Source: an uncultured cyanobacterium
GTDB lineage: Bacteria; Cyanobacteriota; Cyanobacteriia; Phormidesmidales; Phormidesmidaceae
Assembly: GCA_963793265.1 (NCBI GenBank)
Contig: CAWBZI010000001.1
Coordinates: 1,152,001-1,216,000 of the forward strand
DNA: 64,000 nt
Direction: 5' to 3'
The notes under the pieces were generated by a model, which was not told where the DNA came from, searched no databases, and was given only the letters and a program-made list of their open reading frames with translations. A program made the position numbers and the translations under genes. Shown here one piece after another: positions 4,829 to 60,525 of this stretch (positions are counted from its first letter, which is position 1; each line of letters starts with the position of its first letter).

Positions 4829-5403
4829 GTATTCAGTATTTGCCGCTCTCCTATCTCAATGCTTGGGAGTATTGCCATCGCCGCTTTTACTTGGAGTATG
4901 AGCTGGGAGAGATGAAGATAAATGAGCATATTGTGATGGGGACTCATCTGCATCGGAACGTGGATGAGGAAACGGTGCGGCGAGAAGGAGAGACGACGAT
5001 TTATCAGCAGCAGTGGGTGTGGAGCGATCGCCTAAAAATATCCGGTATCATCGACGCCGTAGAAGAAACTCACGGACACCTTGTACCGCTCGAATACAAA
5101 AAAGGGCGCATGGGCAAACACCTGAGCGATCACTTTCAGCTTTGCGGGGCGGCGCTGTGTTTGGAGGAGCGCATGGGGAGAGAGATTGAGTATGGAGAGA
5201 TTTTTTATCATGCCAATCGGCGGCGGGAGCGGGTGATGTTTACTGAGGAATTGCGGGGTAAAACGGAGGCTGCTGTGATGGCAGCGATCACAGCCACCCA
5301 GTCCACCATTCCCGCACCCATCACCCACAAAACCAAATGTAGCGCCTGTAGCCTCACAGAAATTTGCCTACCCAAAGAAGTTCTCGCTTTACAACAATTA
5401 TGA
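4825..5403 (+). CDS. cas4: Cas4 exonuclease
   Basis: YCHRR, G-IID...PLEYKKG nuclease motif, QL, C-terminal CSACSLTEIC Fe-S cysteines; ATGA overlap with cas6. Confidence 0.95.
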   Translation: MSIQYLPLSYLNAWEYCHRRFYLEYELGEMKINEHIVMGTHLHRNVDEETVRREGETTIYQQQWVWSDRLKISGIIDAVEETHGHLVPLEYKKGRMGKHLSDHFQLCGAALCLEERMGREIEYGEIFYHANRRRERVMFTEELRGKTEAAVMAAITATQSTIPAPITHKTKCSACSLTEICLPKEVLALQQL

Positions 5404-6377
5404 CCTCTCTTTACATCACTCAGCCCGACGCCCGGCTCAGCAAAAAATACGAAGCCTTTAAAGTCTCGCTTAAGCAAGAAGATGGCACCTGGAAAAATCA
5501 ATCTGTGCCTGCGCAAACTGTTGAAGAAGTGGTGCTGATGGGCAATCCTTCGGTGACTGGCGATGCGCTGATGTATGCGCTGGAGCTAGGGATGCCGGTG
5601 CACTATCTCTCTCCTTTTGGTAAATACTTAGGGGCGGCGCTGCCAGGACATTCTCGCAACGGACAGCTCAGGCTGGCGCAGTATGGCGCTTACAAGGATG
5701 CTGATGCCAAGCTGACGATTGTGAAGGCGATGGTAACCGCTAAAATTCATAACCAGTATGCGGTGCTGTACCGGCACGGGCAAAAGGAGAATCCCTTAAA
5801 GCTGCGGAAGGCGTTGGTAGCGCAGCAGCATAGCGTGGATCAGGTGCGGGGGATTGAGGGGCTGGCGGCGAGAGAGTATTTTGCGGGGCTTTCGGGGATG
5901 CTGGCGGAGGAGTGGAAGTTTGGGGGGCGCAATCGACGGCCGCCGACTGATCCGGTGAACGCGCTGTTGAGCTTTGGCTATGCGCTGTTGCGAAGCCAGG
6001 TGACTTCGGCGGCGCATATTGCCGGGCTCGATCCTTATGTGGGCTATTTGCATGAGGTGCATCACGGGCAACCGGCGATGGTGCTGGATTTGATGGAGGA
6101 GTTTCGGCCTTTGGTGGCGGATAATGTGGTGCTCGCGACGATCAACAATCGGTCGATTCAGCCGCAGGATTTTACAGAGAGTTTGGGGGCGTACCGGCTG
6201 AGTGACGGGGGGCGGCGGACGTTTTTGCAGGCGTTTGATCGCAAGCTGAACGATACGTTTAAGCATCCAACGTTTGGGTACAAGTGTAGCTACCGAAGAG
6301 CGATCGCACTTCAGGCCCGGCTCTTAGCTAAGCATCTGCAAGAGGGCGTTGTTTACAAGGGTTTGGCGCTGCGATGA
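5400..6377 (+). CDS. cas1: Cas1 integrase (I-D type)
   Basis: RGIEGLAAREYF, RNRRPPTDPVNALLSFGY, GLDPYVGYLH and LDLMEEFRP; ATGA overlap with cas4. Confidence 0.97.
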   Translation: MTSLYITQPDARLSKKYEAFKVSLKQEDGTWKNQSVPAQTVEEVVLMGNPSVTGDALMYALELGMPVHYLSPFGKYLGAALPGHSRNGQLRLAQYGAYKDADAKLTIVKAMVTAKIHNQYAVLYRHGQKENPLKLRKALVAQQHSVDQVRGIEGLAAREYFAGLSGMLAEEWKFGGRNRRPPTDPVNALLSFGYALLRSQVTSAAHIAGLDPYVGYLHEVHHGQPAMVLDLMEEFRPLVADNVVLATINNRSIQPQDFTESLGAYRLSDGGRRTFLQAFDRKLNDTFKHPTFGYKCSYRRAIALQARLLAKHLQEGVVYKGLALR

Positions 6378-6667
6378 CGACGCTCTTTTATCTCATTATT
6401 TACGATTTGCCAGATAGTAAGGCGGCAAATAAGCGGCGCAACCGGCTGCATAAGCTGCTGTCGGGCTATGGCCAATGGACGCAGTACAGTGTGTTTGAGT
6501 GCTTTTTGAATGGGGTGCAGTTTGCGAAGTTGCAAGTGCAGATAGAGCGGCTGATTAAGGTGAATGAGGATTCGGTGCGGGTGTATGTGTTGGATGCGGG
6601 GGCGGTGAAGAAGTCGCTGACGTATGGGTCTGAGCAGCCGAGGCAAGCGTCAGCGATTATTTTGTAG
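6374..6667 (+). CDS. cas2: Cas2
   Basis: YLIIYDL, YGQWTQYSVFEC and EDSVRVY; ATGA overlap with cas1. Confidence 0.96.
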   Translation: MTTLFYLIIYDLPDSKAANKRRNRLHKLLSGYGQWTQYSVFECFLNGVQFAKLQVQIERLIKVNEDSVRVYVLDAGAVKKSLTYGSEQPRQASAIIL

Positions 6668-6731
6668 GAGGGGCACGGGCTATAGATGCTACCTTAAGGG
6701 CGTGAGCATTTGTTCAGCGGAGCCCTAACGT

Positions 6732-7448
6732 ATGGTTTCTCAACTTTCTAAACTTGCTGAGTCTGAAGTAGCTGACGTTTTCTATCCAGATTCTGATGGT
6801 CAGCCGATGGCAAGCAACACGGAGCAATACCGCTGGATTGTGATGATTCAGCAGAACTTAGACTGGCTTTTGTCGGATGCTTTTGTCGCGGGCGATTTGT
6901 TTTGGTATCCCATTGAAGGCCGTTCGGATGTGTCTGTTGCGCCGGATGTGATGGTGGCTGTTGGAAGGCCGAAAGGAAAAAGGCTTTCTTATAAGCAGTG
7001 GGAAGAAGAGGGTGTTGCGCCACAGGTTATTTTTGAGATCATTTCGCCTAGCAACACTAAACGAGAGATGGATAAAAAGCTGCTTTTCTTTGAGCGTTAT
7101 GGGGTTGAAGAGTATTATCTTTACGACACTGAACGTAACAGTTTGGACGGCTTTTTACGGGGTGAGTTTGGCTTAGAGCATATTGCAGATATGGCTGGCT
7201 GGGTAAGTCCTTTGCTTGATATTCGTTTTGATATGTCGGGCGATGAGCTGACGCTATTTCGTCCGGATGGAACGCCTTTTTTGAGCTATCAAGAGGTTAT
7301 TGAGCAAGCTGAAGTGGCTAAGCAGGAGACTGAAGCGGCTAAGCAGAAGGCTGAAGTGGCTAAGCAAGAAGCTGAAGTGGCTAAGCAGGAGACTATGAAG
7401 CTGGCTGAGAAGCTCAGAGCGCTTGGCGTTGACCCCAATGCTGTATGA
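6732..7448 (+). CDS. Uma2 family (DUF820) putative endonuclease with C-terminal coiled coil
   Basis: YPDSDGQPMA, APDVMV, FEIISPSN, YGVEEYYLYD and a LAEKLRALGVDP tail typical of cyanobacterial Uma2 proteins. Confidence 0.9.
   Translation: MVSQLSKLAESEVADVFYPDSDGQPMASNTEQYRWIVMIQQNLDWLLSDAFVAGDLFWYPIEGRSDVSVAPDVMVAVGRPKGKRLSYKQWEEEGVAPQVIFEIISPSNTKREMDKKLLFFERYGVEEYYLYDTERNSLDGFLRGEFGLEHIADMAGWVSPLLDIRFDMSGDELTLFRPDGTPFLSYQEVIEQAEVAKQETEAAKQKAEVAKQEAEVAKQETMKLAEKLRALGVDPNAV
7308..7391 (+). repeat. 4 x 21-bp tandem repeat encoding heptads (AEVAKQE)
   Basis: gctgaagtggctaagcaggag / actgaagcggctaagcagaag / gctgaagtggctaagcaagaa / gctgaagtggctaagcaggag. Confidence 0.9.
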
Positions 7449-7639
7449 TTTTGGCAAAGCCAAGCGGGGGCGATTTCCCTGGGAGGTTTGCCAAAACGCT
7501 AGAACCTTGATAATTCAATAGCTTTGAGAATTTTAGGGAGGGGCGATCGCGATGAATGTCAGCTATTTTTGCTGGTTTTTATGACCTTTGCCAAAACCCT
7601 CTCTGAGATCGATGTATAGTAAGGGTTCCAAAGGCCGGA
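7449..7639 (+). promoter_or_regulatory. CRISPR leader
   Basis: Non-coding and adjacent to the first perfect repeat; TTTGCCAAAAC at 7487 and 7587, with an inverted copy TTTTGGCAAA at 7449; the degenerate repeat is at the opposite end of the array. Confidence 0.85.
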
Positions 7640-10600
7640 CGCGCCAAACCCAAATCCCGATTACCGGGACTGAAACCTAACGGCTGCCGAGTAGAGCACG
7701 TAAACAACTCATTGCGCGCCAAACCCAAATCCCGATTACCGGGACTGAAACGAATGACGAAGTTTGATTTAGACGACTTTTACAGGCGCGCCAAACCCAA
7801 ATCCCGATTACCGGGACTGAAACTGGACATGTTAGGCATGAGCGCGCTTGACATGGAAGCGCGCCAAACCCAAATCCCGATTACCGGGACTGAAACTTTG
7901 GTGCAAAACGGGCAACACGACGCGCCGGTACATCGCGCCAAACCCAAATCCCGATTACCGGGACTGAAACTTGCTGCTTGAGCCATTAGCAAGTAATCCA
8001 AGTGTCCGCGCCAAACCCAAATCCCGATTACCGGGACTGAAACTACAGCAGTGACTTGACCGACCTTAAGAATCCTGCTTCGCGCCAAACCCAAATCCCG
8101 ATTACCGGGACTGAAACATTTGGCATTCATTACTGCTAATGTATCGCGAACTAAACGCGCCAAACCCAAATCCCGATTACCGGGACTGAAACAGATGCTG
8201 CAGGCTGCACTGCGCAATCGCATCGACTTATCGCGCCAAACCCAAATCCCGATTACCGGGACTGAAACTCAAGACCTTTGCTGTACTCAGCACGGGTTGA
8301 AGCTAAGCGCGCCAAACCCAAATCCCGATTACCGGGACTGAAACTAGCGCTAGGCTCGGTCTATGACAGCGAACGGCTACGGCCGCGCCAAACCCAAATC
8401 CCGATTACCGGGACTGAAACATTACGCGCAACTGCCATCAGATGCACCCAATCAGTCGCGCCAAACCCAAATCCCGATTACCGGGACTGAAACATCTAGC
8501 CGAAGACTTGCCAGCCGCAAGTTCTACTAAGCCGCGCCAAACCCAAATCCCGATTACCGGGACTGAAACATCGTGATGCTGCAGAGACGTTCGCGAGCAA
8601 TCTGAGCGCGCCAAACCCAAATCCCGATTACCGGGACTGAAACACAGCGGCAGTGCTGCAGACGATTGACAGCAGTCGGACCGCGCCAAACCCAAATCCC
8701 GATTACCGGGACTGAAACCGTCGATCGCAAGCTTCGACAGCGTTAAGCCGTATCAACGCGCCAAACCCAAATCCCGATTACCGGGACTGAAACGTTGACT
8801 ACTAGTCTGCAAGCAGCATTCGCTCCGCGTCGCGCCAAACCCAAATCCCGATTACCGGGACTGAAACTTAGCTACTGCTGAACTGCGCACAGGCGAACTG
8901 ACTGGCGCGCCAAACCCAAATCCCGATTACCGGGACTGAAACTCAACGACTGCTAGTCCGCTCAAGTGCCGACTGCACGCGCGCCAAACCCAAATCCCGA
9001 TTACCGGGACTGAAACGCTAGTTGGCTCAGGCTGGTTCGAATACTAGTCGACGCGCCAAACCCAAATCCCGATTACCGGGACTGAAACGATCAGCTGATG
9101 TACGCCGATAGTCGTTGAATCAGCGCGCGCCAAACCCAAATCCCGATTACCGGGACTGAAACGATAGTCGTGACTGTAGCCAGCGATTCAAGCGCGTCGC
9201 GCGCCAAACCCAAATCCCGATTACCGGGACTGAAACTTGCAGCTTGCCAGACTTGAAGGTCAGCTAAATTTTTCGCGCCAAACCCAAATCCCGATTACCG
9301 GGACTGAAACGATCTGCGATCGCACTAGCGCCTCGCCGCGTATCTGTCCGCGCCAAACCCAAATCCCGATTACCGGGACTGAAACAAGCAATCTTCTAGA
9401 CTTCACATCGGAGTTCAATGCTCTCGCGCCAAACCCAAATCCCGATTACCGGGACTGAAACGATGATTGCGAATGTCTGTTAGCTTGATTTGCGACAGCG
9501 CGCCAAACCCAAATCCCGATTACCGGGACTGAAACAACAATCTGCTAGACTTCCAATGCGGGTTCAATGCTGCCGCGCCAAACCCAAATCCCGATTACCG
9601 GGACTGAAACATTAGATGCGCTGTCCGAACTCGCGGAGAGAATCGCAGCGCGCCAAACCCAAATCCCGATTACCGGGACTGAAACGCAGCGGCGTTGCAG
9701 ACTCGACTACGCAAGCGTACAGCGCGCCAAACCCAAATCCCGATTACCGGGACTGAAACGCGTAGGGATAGACGTGGTGCCGACTGCTAATCACCGCGCG
9801 CCAAACCCAAATCCCGATTACCGGGACTGAAACATTCCAGACACTATCAGAGCCGTAGCAAGCGCTGATACGCGCCAAACCCAAATCCCGATTACCGGGA
9901 CTGAAACTCTAGAATAGCGTTATGGATTAGCGCACGTATGCTAACCCGCGCCAAACCCAAATCCCGATTACCGGGACTGAAACCATTGGACACTATCAGA
10001 CTGCGACTGTCAGGTGTCTGTCCGCGCCAAACCCAAATCCCGATTACCGGGACTGAAACACAGTGCTATCAACGTCCGGACTAACGCTGGACAGCAGGCG
10101 CGCCAAACCCAAATCCCGATTACCGGGACTGAAACTTAGCATCGTCAGTGAGCAGTTCCGGCCAAGCCTGTTGCCGCGCCAAACCCAAATCCCGATTACC
10201 GGGACTGAAACATCTGAATCTATTAGACTGTATGTGCTAGGACTGTTAGCGCGCCAAACCCAAATCCCGATTACCGGGACTGAAACTAGACAGACTCGGA
10301 CTGGCTCAGCATCAGCAGCTATCGCGCCAAACCCAAATCCCGATTACCGGGACTGAAACAATCCGAATCACTTTATGCCCTGGGCGCATCTCTTGCCGCG
10401 CCAAACCCAAATCCCGATTACCGGGACTGAAACGGATCTCAGCAGATGGCATTACCGCTGGCCTAGCTACGCGCCAAACCCAAATCCCGATTACCGGGAC
10501 TGAAACACAAACGCAGACAAGCAGCTTAAAATCGCCTGCAAGCGCGCCAAACCCAAATCCCGATTACCGGGACTGAAACATTTGATTCGCTATAGTATCA

Positions 10601-11773
10601 GTCGGCAGGCTTTGATCCGCGCCAAACCCAAATCCCGATTACCGGGACTGAAACATTCGGACAATGCAGCTGATCATAACGAGCTCTAGATTCCGCGCCA
10701 AACCCAAATCCCGATTACCGGGACTGAAACGTGGGTGAGCGTTAGTCATCGCGAGAACGTTTCGATGCCGCGCCAAACCCAAATCCCGATTACCGGGACT
10801 GAAACTGTTCGGCGCTCCAATAACGACTGCCACGCTGACCGCACCCGCGCCAAACCCAAATCCCGATTACCGGGACTGAAACTCCTCTACGACCTCTTCT
10901 AGGGAGATGAGTCGGCTTCGCGCCAAACCCAAATCCCGATTACCGGGACTGAAACATCGACAGCAGCGGCACGATCGGACACATTTTCGATCGCGCCAAA
11001 CCCAAATCCCGATTACCGGGACTGAAACGTCTCAGCAGCATCGGCATTAGCCTCTAGTCTAGCTAGCGCGCCAAACCCAAATCCCGATTACCGGGACTGA
11101 AACGAGCTCTCCAAGATAGACGAGGCACACGACTCGACCCCCGCGCCAAACCCAAATCCCGATTACCGGGACTGAAACATCGCCTCTGCCACCGATAGAG
11201 TATTGCGAACATCCGCGCCAAACCCAAATCCCGATTACCGGGACTGAAACTCATGCGTTTACCTACAGCCGGTACGTATTAGACCTGTCGCGCCAAACCC
11301 AAATCCCGATTACCGGGACTGAAACACGTGCTGAGCTGACCGAGACAGGACGTAGCACTAGAGCGCGCCAAACCCAAATCCCGATTACCGGGACTGAAAC
11401 ACCTCATCCCAATCAGCAATGCAACTGACAGCCAAGGCCGCGCCAAACCCAAATCCCGATTACCGGGACTGAAACCTGCTGAAGGTGTTAGAGCTGAATG
11501 CGCGGGGCGGGCCTTCTGACGCGCCAAACCCAAATCCCGATTACCGGGACTGAAACGAATTAGACCGCTATGAAACAGTCATCCTGTCTAATCGCGCCAA
11601 ACCCAAATCCCGATTACCGGGACTGAAACCACATCGAAGGGCAGCGGCCCCGGTTCGTGAGCCCACGCGCCAAACCCAAATCCCGATTACCGGGACTGAA
11701 AATTTCAACTGCGCTATTGTATGGGGGTAGCAAACACACGCCAAACCCAAATCCTGATTACCGGGAGTAAGTC
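7640..11773 (+). CRISPR. Type I-D CRISPR array: 56 repeats (54 perfect, 1 with a last-base change, 1 degenerate terminal) and 55 spacers of 34-44 nt
   Basis: Repeat CGCGCCAAACCCAAATCCCGATTACCGGGACTGAAAC (37 nt, TCCCG/CGGGA stem, GAAAC 3' end), counted by hand. Repeat 55 (11666-11702) ends GAAAA. Terminal copy 11737-11773 is CACGCCAAACCCAAATCCTGATTACCGGGAGTAAGTC. Confidence 0.99.
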
Positions 11774-11774
11774 G

Positions 11775-12035
11775 ATGAGCCCAGCTTTATCTAAAATGAT
11801 AAACGAGCTAAGTCAGCTCTCGCCTCAAGAACAGTGGACATTGTTAGGATACCTAACAAATCGGTTGCAAGACACTGTTCGCTTAGACGAAGCATCATCT
11901 AAGTTGAAACCTACAACGGAGATGGGGAATGCCCTTTCTATCTTCGAAGAGACTAGAGGAATGTGGGGCAGTAGCAGCCTGACATCAATAGATGACGAAC
12001 TCAGTAGACAAAGGCAAAACGACTGGGGAGAATGA
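11775..12035 (+). CDS. Putative antitoxin (86 aa) of the downstream PIN toxin
   Basis: Small gene; QLSPQEQWTLL and GMW...R-R-DW segments resemble VapC-associated antitoxins; GGGAG lies 7 nt before ATG11775. Confidence 0.7.
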   Translation: MSPALSKMINELSQLSPQEQWTLLGYLTNRLQDTVRLDEASSKLKPTTEMGNALSIFEETRGMWGSSSLTSIDDELSRQRQNDWGE

Positions 12036-12438
12036 GCCCGACATCGCAAAACTAATTTTTGATACTAATATCTTCATCTACCATTTCAACAATCAGCTAG
12101 GCGAGCTAGGAACCGATCTTCTTAAGCAAGGACTGCTGAACTCAGGCGCTTATTCAGTCATTTCAAAAATTGAGGTACTAGGCTTCAAGCAGTCCAAAGC
12201 TGATGATACGAAAGCTCGACAGTTTTTGTCTCAGCTCGTCGAACTACCGCTGACCGCCAAAGTTACAGAACGAACAATTTCAATTCGCCAGAATTTAAAG
12301 ATAAAAACGCCTGATGCCATCATTGCAGCTACAGCAATAGAGCACTCACACCGCCTAGTGACTCGCAACTCAAGTGACTCCAGCAAAATCGAGGATTTAG
12401 ACTGGCTGAATCCTTTCATAGAACAAGACCACTCGTAA
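11992..12438 (+). CDS. vapC: PIN-domain (VapC-like) toxin; start uncertain
   Basis: IFDTN, SVISKIE, PDAIIAATA and LVTRNxxD PIN motifs. Confidence 0.85.
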   Translation: MTNSVDKGKTTGENEPDIAKLIFDTNIFIYHFNNQLGELGTDLLKQGLLNSGAYSVISKIEVLGFKQSKADDTKARQFLSQLVELPLTAKVTERTISIRQNLKIKTPDAIIAATAIEHSHRLVTRNSSDSSKIEDLDWLNPFIEQDHS

Positions 12439-12462
12439 TTGTGATGAATTCGTGTGAAACAT

Positions 12463-12492
12463 TTGACACATCAAAAATACTGCTGATACGCT
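12463..12492 (+). promoter_or_regulatory. Putative sigma70 promoter
   Basis: TTGACA (12463-12468), 18-nt spacer, then TGn-TACGCT extended -10 (12487-12492). Confidence 0.6.
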
Positions 12493-12499
12493 GTATCTT

Positions 12500-12706
12500 A
12501 CGGTTGTTCTCGCAACAACCTAACGACCGTCTTGAAAAAACTAGCCATTGTCGGCGTTGGCTGGAACCCAACACCGACAACTAACCTCTGAACTGATTAG
12601 ACCAGTAAAGAGGCTGTGGGTATCATCCCACAGCCACCCTGGCGCTTGGCAAGTCGGAGTGGCTATTTTTTTCTGGGTTTTCTTCAACCACTCACCCGAA
12701 GAACCC
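12500..12706 (+). ncRNA. Highly structured 5' leader or putative cis-regulatory RNA
   Basis: Hairpins at 12502-12520, 12548-12580, 12612-12635 and 12675-12706; terminator-like stem 12632-12664 followed by T7; long-range TAGCCA/TGGCTA pairing. Confidence 0.55.
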
Positions 12707-13033
12707 ATGAAAATCATGACTTTCACAGCCAATCAACCGCTACAAGCCCGTCCAACAGCTCACCCAGAAACTCGCCAAATTATTACCCAGGCCATCACTC
12801 AATCTGAGCCAACCACCGCCCTACAGCTTTCGTCAAACGGCACCGATCCCGGCGAATCTCTCCGGCATATTTTACTGGGTAGCCCCAGCGCTATCCAACA
12901 GACCATTCACCTACTCCACAAGCTTCACTACGCCGAAACCCTCTTGTGGACACCCATCCTCACCATCGAAGAACCGTTGAACATTACACCTGCGCAAGGC
13001 GAAGCAATCAGCCTGCTCAAAAAGCAAATATAG
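12707..13033 (+). CDS. Small hypothetical protein (108 aa; LRHILLGSPSAIQQTIHLLHKLHYAE...W-P core)
   Basis: ATG12707 is in frame with ORF 12548..13033. The core motif resembles, from memory, a recurrent uncharacterised cyanobacterial family. Confidence 0.7.
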   Translation: MKIMTFTANQPLQARPTAHPETRQIITQAITQSEPTTALQLSSNGTDPGESLRHILLGSPSAIQQTIHLLHKLHYAETLLWTPILTIEEPLNITPAQGEAISLLKKQI

Positions 13034-13043
13034 CCAAAGGTGC

Positions 13044-13081
13044 ATTCGCAGGCTGGCTATAAAACAAACCAGCCTGCGAAT
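13044..13081. terminator. Perfect 13-bp inverted repeat after the small gene
   Basis: ATTCGCAGGCTGG-N12-CCAGCCTGCGAAT; no clean U tract on the + strand. Confidence 0.5.
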
Positions 13082-13618
13082 ACAAACAAATCTAAAACAG
13101 CACTTGACCTGAATACTCGCCCGACTGCCGAGCCCCGTCCGACTCCATATCAGAATACTCACGCGCTGACATCACCTGGCTAGCCACCAGTAGCATCAAC
13201 AGCAGCACAAACGGGATCGATACAAAATTAAACAACAACTTACACCAAGCTTCACTAAAAGAAGACTGATACACAGCGAAACCTCACGAGCAACGAAAAT
13301 TAGGAGCGAAGAGAAGACAAAGCGAAAAGACGAAGCGGCTCCCTTGTGTATTCATTCTCCATGTCATAGATGCCCATAGCCGGACGGTTAGTGACACAAC
13401 CAAAAGTGGTTTGTCACAAATCTTTCAAAAGGTATACGCACGAGGTCGTACAAACCGTACTCAAAGCTTGTTTTTGTATCAGCGGCCACTCTGACTAACA
13501 GCAACAACTTTTACGTATTAGCAGCTAAACGTAAAGGTATCAAGAACTGCATTCGATACCCTTGTATTCGCCCGATCGCGCTGTAAAATCCTTAATAGCT
13601 TGGAAAAAGGACTTGAAA

Positions 13619-54947: not shown

Positions 54948-55052
54948 GAACTCGATAGGATAACTGAGCTAACTTATCAAAAGCCCCAGGGAAAGTCCGG
55001 CGAAAATCCGGCGCTGTGCCGCAACTGTCAAAGTCAGAACACCTGAGCGAGC
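54948..55052 (+). promoter_or_regulatory. Cobalamin riboswitch (short form; boundaries approximate)
   Basis: GGGAA-AGT-CCGG-CGAAAAT-CCGG-CGCTG..CCGCAACTGT and B12 box AAGTCAGAACACCTG; directly upstream of cbiX. Confidence 0.8.
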
Positions 55053-56613: not shown

Positions 56614-56685
56614 GGGTCGCTAGCTCAGTGGTAGAGCATTCGGCTTTTAACCGACTGGTCCTGGGTTCGAATCCCAGGCGACCCA
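56614..56685 (+). tRNA. trnK: tRNA-Lys(TTT)
   Basis: GGGTCGC/GCGACCC acceptor stem, AGCTCAGTGGTAGAGC D arm, CTTTTAA anticodon loop and GGTTCGAATCC T arm; CCA not encoded. Confidence 0.97.
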
Positions 56686-60213: not shown

Positions 60214-60525
60214 AAGCATACTTCGCTCATTTGAGTTCTCAGAAGGTAGTGACAGTTATCGCGTCTCTAAATCAAGAGAATAAATATGTTTCTACATAGA
60301 GTTAGGCAAAATATGTGACTTTATCGAGAAGGTTCCAAACGAACATTTCTGTAAAGGTGCTCGATTGGAATCTCGATGTTCATACTCGCAATAGAGATGC
60401 GATCGCCCGCTCTATGTGGAAAATACAGCCACATCCGCCCTTCTCCCTTCCGAAAGCACTCCACCTGCATCCGCTTAGCGCTTATCAACGCATATTCTTT
60501 TGAACTTTACACGCCTACCAAAAGC

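Follow-up and report, generated by a model that had tools for sequence, protein, structure and literature searches.

A proliferating small-gene cassette of cyanobacteria carries a conserved RNA leader predicted to act as a two-state translational switch

What restrains a 108-residue protein of no known family, and what part does the RNA ahead of its start codon play? The question is raised by a locus within a window of 64,000 nucleotides (the whole stretch of DNA analyzed here) from a genome of 5.68 Mb, with closest named homologues among Phormidesmis/Leptolyngbya proteins. The unit comprises a promoter, an RNA leader and the 108-aa ORF, all on the forward strand, and an earlier note had proposed that it is a self-contained module in which a switch-like leader restrains the protein, whether as an attenuator, as a riboswitch or under antisense control. 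The general part of that proposal holds: the unit is self-contained, and its leader is conserved, covarying, switch-like and predicted to restrain a small protein. Two further points were beyond the note's view: the unit is multicopy, and the ribosome-binding site (RBS) is the predicted target of the conserved switch.

The unit is preceded by cas1 and cas2, by a Uma2 gene and a CRISPR array, and by a pair of small genes of which the last is a PIN gene. The cas genes, the Uma2-family gene and the long array span window positions 5364–11750 (the array, from repeated frames, ~7700–11750); at 11721–12438 a 104-aa ORF overlaps the PIN-domain ORF, a VapBC-like pair by arrangement, and the stop codon of the PIN ORF adjoins the left boundary of the unit. 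On the other side, a 60-aa ORF with a hydrophobic middle (13092–13274, reverse strand, no Pfam match) is convergent with the unit; this stretch is 80% identical in another genome (G195), where it lies ~4.6 kb downstream of the unit's closest relative. An AdoCbl-II riboswitch match and a tRNA occur elsewhere in the window (54973–55051 and 56614–56685). The unit itself reads as follows, in window positions.

12434–12462, forward strand: upstream conserved element, the approximate left boundary of the unit; DNA similarity to congener copies begins at 12434–12457
12463–12492, forward strand: sigma-70-type promoter (-35 TTGACA, 18-nt spacer, -10 TACGCT), from sequence and family pattern
12500–12530, forward strand: P0, a variable 5' hairpin at the inferred start, from the minimum free energy (MFE) fold
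12527–12547, forward strand: a1 decoy and 5' strand of P1, resembling the start-codon region
12548–12580, forward strand: P2 hairpin with a 6–7-nt loop, from covariation
12584–12614, forward strand: P3 hairpin with internal loop and 7-nt terminal loop, from loop length, an A.C/G.U pair and covariation
12612–12635, forward strand: P4 hairpin, whose base swaps register with P3 and P5
12632–12664, forward strand: P5 hairpin, the long form of which pairs AGC 12632–34 with GCT 12662–64
12660–12683, forward strand: 3' strand of P1 and switching strand a' (anti-SD/anti-start codon), from pairing energies in both classes
12675–12713, forward strand: P6, the SD-sequestering hairpin; with P1 open it extends over the ATG and the As after it
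12707–13033, forward strand: ORF, 108 aa, of no known family
13041–13084, no strand assigned: 16-nt inverted repeat after the stop, facing the convergent 60-aa ORF

The leader of the window copy is densely structured, as had been claimed: residues 12495–12720 fold to -80.4 kcal/mol (z = -5.37), a value equalled by none of 200 shuffles. The stem 12548–12560/12568–12580 is present (13 nt, 92%), as is the stem 12612–12620/12627–12635, which is mutually exclusive with the hairpin 12632–12664; the latter, with its T-run, was also recovered (-16.4 kcal/mol folded alone, 7 T in the next 8 nt), and the SD hairpin 12675–12706 appears in the MFE. The proposed long-range closure exists and is longer than claimed (12534–12547/12660–12673, 14 nt, 93%). 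The hairpin formerly regarded as a terminator corresponds to the long form of P5, which is incompatible with inner P1. For the 5' segment of this copy, two alternative pairings are indeed available (-7.6 and -10.1). In the family at large the segment forms the variable hairpin P0, whose mean energy is -12.2 against -6.3 for shuffled sequences; 85/88 leaders beat their shuffles by more than 2 kcal.

At the two ends of the unit the earlier description stood only in part. The "strong promoter" is a promoter-like pair (TTGACA 12463–12468, an 18-nt spacer and TACGCT 12487–12492, read from the sequence), and the adjective finds no support: a consensus scan did not return this site, and the -10 element matches at 3 of 6 positions. 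Transcription would start near 12499. A promoter-like pair occupies the equivalent place in 89/94 homologous leaders, compared with 2.3% of random 170-nt windows, with spacers of 17 nt (47), 18 nt (40) or 16 nt (2). The closing inverted repeat is present, with arms at 13041–13056 and 13069–13084 (16 nt, 94%) rather than as 13 bp ending at 13081, and is a probable terminator or 3' stabilizer; the last 60 nt at the 3' end fall more than 3 kcal below shuffles in 43/94 copies and are not conserved in sequence. A longer overlapping frame from 12548 (161 aa) was rejected, being closed in paralogues, and ATG 12707 is therefore taken as the start.

Comparison across the family defines what is conserved in the leader. 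From 153 distinct upstream regions, 121 match the leader profile and 116 are nearly full-length; removal of near-duplicates left 105, with a mean identity of 56%. They share an architecture of four hairpins, P2–P5, enclosed by the long-range helix P1 (a five-way junction), and fall into two classes: class A has an A-run decoy, a U-run and a start codon followed by As, and class B an unrelated purine-rich decoy together with its complement. Changes on both sides occur in 29/34 pairs of P2–P5 (MAFFT, 68 leaders), a count inflated by relatedness, the set being mostly Phormidesmis/Leptolyngbya relatives that are not independent; none of 500 shuffles reaches 29/34, and slid controls are 25–42% paired, against 88%. 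The pairs highest in mutual information belong to the same helices as the covarying ones, and within P2 both sides change in 10/11 tested pairs. P1 can be assessed independently of column alignment by the length of its arms, which are equal in 42/47 class A leaders (shuffled mean 22.7, maximum 32) and 35/47 class B leaders (11.0, maximum 21), 11/105 rows being left out as unparsable. RNAalifold, applied to 38 class A leaders, arrives independently at the closed five-way junction.

In some features it is apparently shape, not sequence, that has been conserved. The loop ends of P2 covary as C.A or U.G (69/105 leaders), the basal P3 pair 12584/12614 is A.C or G.U in 96/105 (both classes), the P3 terminal loop measures 7 nt in 83/94 while its sequence is free, and the P4 loop positions 12622 and 12626 are A and U in 104/105. 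Invariant junction bases include C12546, C12581, U12582, C12585 and U12615. Three register-swapping AGC/GCT pairs, in P1, P4 and P5, are nearly invariant and show no covariation of their own, so that the case for their alternative pairings is made by P1 arm length and by energy.

The strand 3' of P5, a', is complementary to upstream a1 and to the SD/start region. Over 103 leaders the a':a1 duplex averages -12.7 with the native partner, -11.0 after a same-class swap, -6.1 with the other class and -5.3 when shuffled; the a':downstream duplex gives -18.6, -17.0, -13.7 and -12.8, respectively. Against same-class partners the native strand has a modest edge, ranking in the top quarter in 54/103 leaders for a1 and 45/103 for the RBS region. 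This triple complementarity is kept with different sequences in the two classes, which argues for a two-state translational switch. Comparative sequence evidence shows the helices, the two pairings open to a' and the fact that these exclude each other, as well as selection on both RNA and ORF.

Folding calculations describe how such a switch might behave (94 leaders with a usable start, 11/105 dropped). At 30°C the dominant state is a1-paired in 36/94, RBS-blocked in 50/94 and neither in 8/94. When a1 is blocked, RBS opening becomes costlier by a median of 4.2 kcal/mol (by more than 1 kcal in 74/94), whereas blocking three control segments adds 0.06–0.33 kcal (more than 1 kcal in 21, 22 and 35 of 94); in 7/94 leaders blocking a1 lowers the cost. 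For the window copy the MFE is the closed form: at 37°C it reaches -81.8, compared with -75.9 when a1 is blocked. RBS opening there costs 10.1 with a1 free and 13.0 with a1 blocked, and stepwise folding has P1 closed by 12668–12675. Opening of the RBS region with a1 free still costs ~8 kcal across the family, so the ON state may be only partly open. By these computations the two states are close in energy, and it is from computed energies that we infer which of them would be ON and which OFF.

We consider it very probable that the leader is a two-state translational switch, and the unit a dispersed single-gene module under its control. In the proposed OFF state, a' would lie on the SD and start codon (full P6), with P5 and P3 in their long forms. 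In the ON state, the upstream decoy a1 would capture a', closing the long helix P1 around P2–P5 into the five-way junction; this closure would shorten P6 and cut the RBS opening cost by ~4 kcal/mol. The balance would be tipped by a trans-acting partner that recognizes the shape of the junction, most likely a protein, and possibly the encoded dimer (see below) or its paralogues. Were the dimer to bind the closed form, positive feedback would result; binding to the open form would give self-repression. To this full reading, switch and protein trigger together, we assign a probability of roughly 0.5. The product would probably be one that has to be kept in check until a trigger arrives, and the unit would be gained and lost as other small accessory cassettes are.

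A DNA-level control may also operate upstream of the leader. A palindrome formed by the upstream element with the -35 occurs in 21/46 class A leaders and 0/48 class B leaders, and is imperfect in the window copy; it is a possible operator.

The encoded protein is under purifying selection (pN/pS 0.20/0.74 and 0.29/0.75), with pN below pS in 91/91 pairs (55/55 class A, 36/36 class B). Its family amounts to 623 clusters at 50% identity (E ≤ 0.001), at least one row of which is spurious; a 7068-aa entry (P0130) was discarded as a repeat match. Sequence searches of Pfam, NCBIfam, PHROGs and the PDB returned nothing credible, and the ESM Atlas only unnamed cyanobacterial clusters. AlphaFold predicts a low-confidence, apparently unstructured N-terminal stretch of ~45 aa followed by a confident, conserved β-α-β domain of ~60 aa. 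Conserved residues include H54, H71, Y75, W81 and S82. When the monomer and a natural tandem protein were used for fold searches, Z stayed at or below 4.9 and the matches were generic arrangements of ferredoxin, ACT or PII type, a null that excludes no family. The core domain is predicted to form an intertwined homodimer (score 0.76, best control 0.00), with runs agreeing in at least 95% of contacts and pLDDT of at least 83; in calibration this mark was reached by 20/30 solved homodimers and 1/23 monomers. Two domain copies occur in one protein in a natural tandem (P0129), and one locus (L156) holds two family genes in tandem. A search for fused forms (8000 candidates scored) yielded 33 longer proteins, none above 179 aa and none with a Pfam domain, which is weak evidence. 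From its small sheet-and-helix fold one might guess that the dimer binds RNA.

The source genome holds 24 copies of the ORF (from a profile of 20 paralogous cores), and a covariance model finds 23 strong RNA matches there, each before a family ORF (23/23); 23 copies are complete and dispersed, and the 24th ORF is without a leader. This copy (L015, G000:C4:698544-699296), which lacks a promoter as well, lies 3' of an apparently truncated PIN-type gene and is probably a broken copy. Elsewhere in the window, 60221–60333 on the reverse strand (L099) matches the class B promoter/decoy region weakly, with no RNA core or ORF, and is either chance or a decayed remnant. Among congeners the ORF occurs in 16/18, with 0–42 matches per genome. 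In a phylum-wide sample the ORF is found in at least 16/151 genomes and the RNA in at least 15/149 (22 candidates per genome scored for the RNA, the phylum counts being lower bounds), the latter in 9 genera beyond its own. One Nostoc-type homologue matches 13 cyanobacterial plasmid records, and on plasmid D of Trichormus variabilis (L180, 926–5167) a homologue is oriented divergently to parG and immediately followed by a replication-related gene.

Neighbors vary from copy to copy: 54 ORFs scanned around 20 paralogues include 7 Uma2 genes and several of TA type, and no common partner gene. Three class B copies are 92–93% identical over 500 nt, with similarity running from 6 nt before the -35 to just past the stop, near-identity that implies continuing duplication. 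Inspection by eye of the termini of four close class B copies (82–93% identical) revealed neither terminal repeats nor target duplications of the IS/MITE kind, and no empty orthologous site was found.

Outside the source genome the RNA mostly keeps its gene. We examined 19 foreign matches, partly picked because no ORF had been listed there, and 12 precede a confirmed family ORF. The exceptions are one with a family-like start by eye, one at a contig end, one before a different 212-aa ORF, one without a convincing gene, two identical partial (P2–P3) copies before another small ORF, and one weak match that is probably chance. A duplicated small-gene cluster (L226 and L235, G029:C2) has only the P2–P3 half of the RNA before a different small ORF, and such half copies possibly reflect an earlier or alternative use of the module.

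The ORF in turn occurs without the RNA. An HTH gene lies beside 12 of the 16 RNA-less loci scanned (by Pfam, one weak; hand-picked from 32 RNA-less entries), often upstream or divergent, and beside 1 of 4 plasmid loci by annotation. At three such loci (L022, L064, L066) a co-oriented DUF7662–HTH_3 fusion gene precedes the member, and the pair recurs as a two-gene unit. In several RNA-less copies from other lineages (L028, L031, L038, L045, L050), inspection by eye shows one imperfect hairpin immediately 5' of the RBS, a simpler leader that looks conserved. That an RNA leader or an HTH protein, two unrelated devices, guards the same gene would suggest a product kept off until triggered.

Several other explanations must be weighed against the switch with a protein trigger. 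In one, no binder is needed: timing or processing would set the same switch, an option we consider doubtful yet worth serious attention. As a timer, P1 would form first during transcription and permit a short burst of translation before a' moved to the RBS. The order of synthesis suits this (a1 is transcribed before a', and a' before the RBS), as do the early closure of P1 in the window copy and the prevalence of the RBS-blocked state among full leaders, but a pure timer needs no four covarying hairpins with conserved non-canonical pairs, and the closed form remains the MFE of the full leader in the window copy. Under processing, the switch would be reset by nuclease cleavage or, in the manner of IsrK, in trans by a short isoform with P1 closed; same-class a1 strands pair nearly as well as native ones, and cross-talk between copies is possible. 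A related case is the isrK–orf45–anrP leader of the Salmonella Gifsy-1 prophage, where two near-isoenergetic folds, one silent and one active, restrain a small gene (PMC4825925). The cyanobacterial leader is like it in having two alternative folds in cis that are predicted, by comparison and computation, to control translation, but differs in showing no sequence or Rfam match, no prophage context and no conserved terminator to make the short isoform, and in its five-way junction with upstream decoy and at least 20 copies per genome. An internal U-tract is found in 16/94 leaders, and a short isoform could arise by processing instead.

In riboswitches the helix closing the junction typically shares a strand with the expression platform, and translational ON riboswitches and ribosomal-protein leaders likewise combine a multi-stem junction with a closing helix that shares a strand with the anti-SD. 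This leader, too, has a conserved 5'-UTR junction that shares a strand with its expression platform. A metabolite or ion riboswitch, with the P1-closed junction as aptamer, a' as switching strand and translation ON upon binding, draws further support from the invariant junction bases and the nine additional genera. We nonetheless judge it unlikely: the gene family downstream is a single one with no metabolic annotation (own genome 23/23, foreign 12/19) among unrelated neighbors, the loops are free in sequence, and ~20 copies per genome with a turnover of 0–42 are unlike a metabolic regulon. An orphan gene family, a proliferating cassette and no Rfam family set the leader apart from the known ON riboswitches and leaders. 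Transcription attenuation, with long P5 and its U-tract as terminator and P1/P4 as antiterminator, fits the window copy, where the hairpin is stable, the T-run long and long P5 excludes inner P1; it finds no support as the mechanism of the family and is, overall, highly unlikely. Only those 16/94 copies (13/46 class A, 3/48 class B; class B median 3) have 6 or more T among the 8 nt 3' of P5, the length of the U-run tracks that of the upstream A-run, and a scan called no forward-strand terminator there. In class A the U-run serves instead as the pairing partner of the upstream A-run or of the start codon region.

The remaining explanation, a C4/P4-CI-type antisense immunity RNA or a classical type I toxin–antitoxin, is the least credible of those considered, and we would be surprised to see it hold. 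An upstream repeat of the RBS region (a1/a2) is the logic of C4, which the present leader recalls, and TA and Uma2 genes are frequent neighbors. Over 94 units neither loop–loop kissing nor cognate loop targets gave a signal: for all four loops in three regions native pairs equal swapped ones, with longest native complements of 3.3–5.4 nt matching swapped partners (mean rank 0.47–0.55), contrary to the suggestion of C4-type control. The C4 model was missing from the Rfam matches, both at gathering score for the window and at E ≤ 10 for the leaders searched. There is no true phage match, and icd/ant genes are absent near the unit, whose neighbors are unrelated. Type I toxins are usually small hydrophobic membrane peptides, with soluble exceptions. 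None of the 94 proteins has a transmembrane-like stretch (maximum 19-aa hydropathy 1.34, none above 1.6), and a sigma-70-type pattern on the local opposite strand occurs in 9/94 units against 6.2% by chance, no excess of antisense promoters of this type. Classical type I features were absent in these two scans. Like C4 RNA (RF01695) with its a1/b1 targets (PMC2864571, PMC8546580), the cyanobacterial RNA is a multi-hairpin RNA upstream of a small gene, with an upstream mimic of the RBS region that would compete for the antisense strand, but its antisense strand lies 3' of the junction and in cis, it has no icd/ant genes and it resides on cyanobacterial chromosomes. The type I aapA/IsoA mRNAs (PMC6733600) resemble it in having several chromosomal copies, a hidden SD, long-range pairing and a monocistronic layout; here, by comparison, the protein is a predicted soluble β-α-β fold, and the long-range pairing lies inside the 5' leader and is predicted to activate. 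The loop, antisense-promoter, hydropathy and U-tract results make membership in the C4, type I TA or attenuator classes less likely, but the logical resemblance to IsrK and to anti-SD toxin mRNAs is unaffected by them.

No Rfam family reaches its gathering score in the window, in agreement with the earlier failure to name one, and at E ≤ 10 the window leader and 20 short loci with 19 paralogous leaders gave scattered sub-threshold matches, none recurring. A phage origin was tried and dropped, the one viral match being a 14-residue chance match and no phage record carrying the protein or three RNA patterns. No paper describing the RNA or the protein was found in the literature searched, which takes in few subscription papers. 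A 2026 screen of 202 cyanobacterial genomes was anchored on 931 KEGG ortholog groups (PMC12873609), and would accordingly catch the leader only through a neighboring gene. The structured RNA class, joined in this proliferating cassette to the gene of an orphan small protein, is thus real and apparently undescribed.

As an RNA class the leader is well supported by comparison, and it reaches 20–40 copies per genome in some filamentous cyanobacteria. Its three-strand switch predicts exact compensatory mutations and is directly testable. It is conceivable, though speculative, that the leader is a new class of sensor RNA, a five-way junction that binds a protein or ligand, and that the 20–40 paralogous cassettes of a genome cross-talk: the encoded dimer, or a factor tied to stress or phage, would lock all leaders ON together in a bistable manner, with the HTH-repressed copies of other lineages as the DNA-level equivalent. 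The trigger, if found, would constitute a new riboswitch ligand or an RNA–protein feedback module, and the switch may find use as a compact translational device for cyanobacterial engineering; for the cyanobacteria themselves, the trigger would explain why a one-gene cassette without an evident mobility enzyme has been multiplied and kept under selection.
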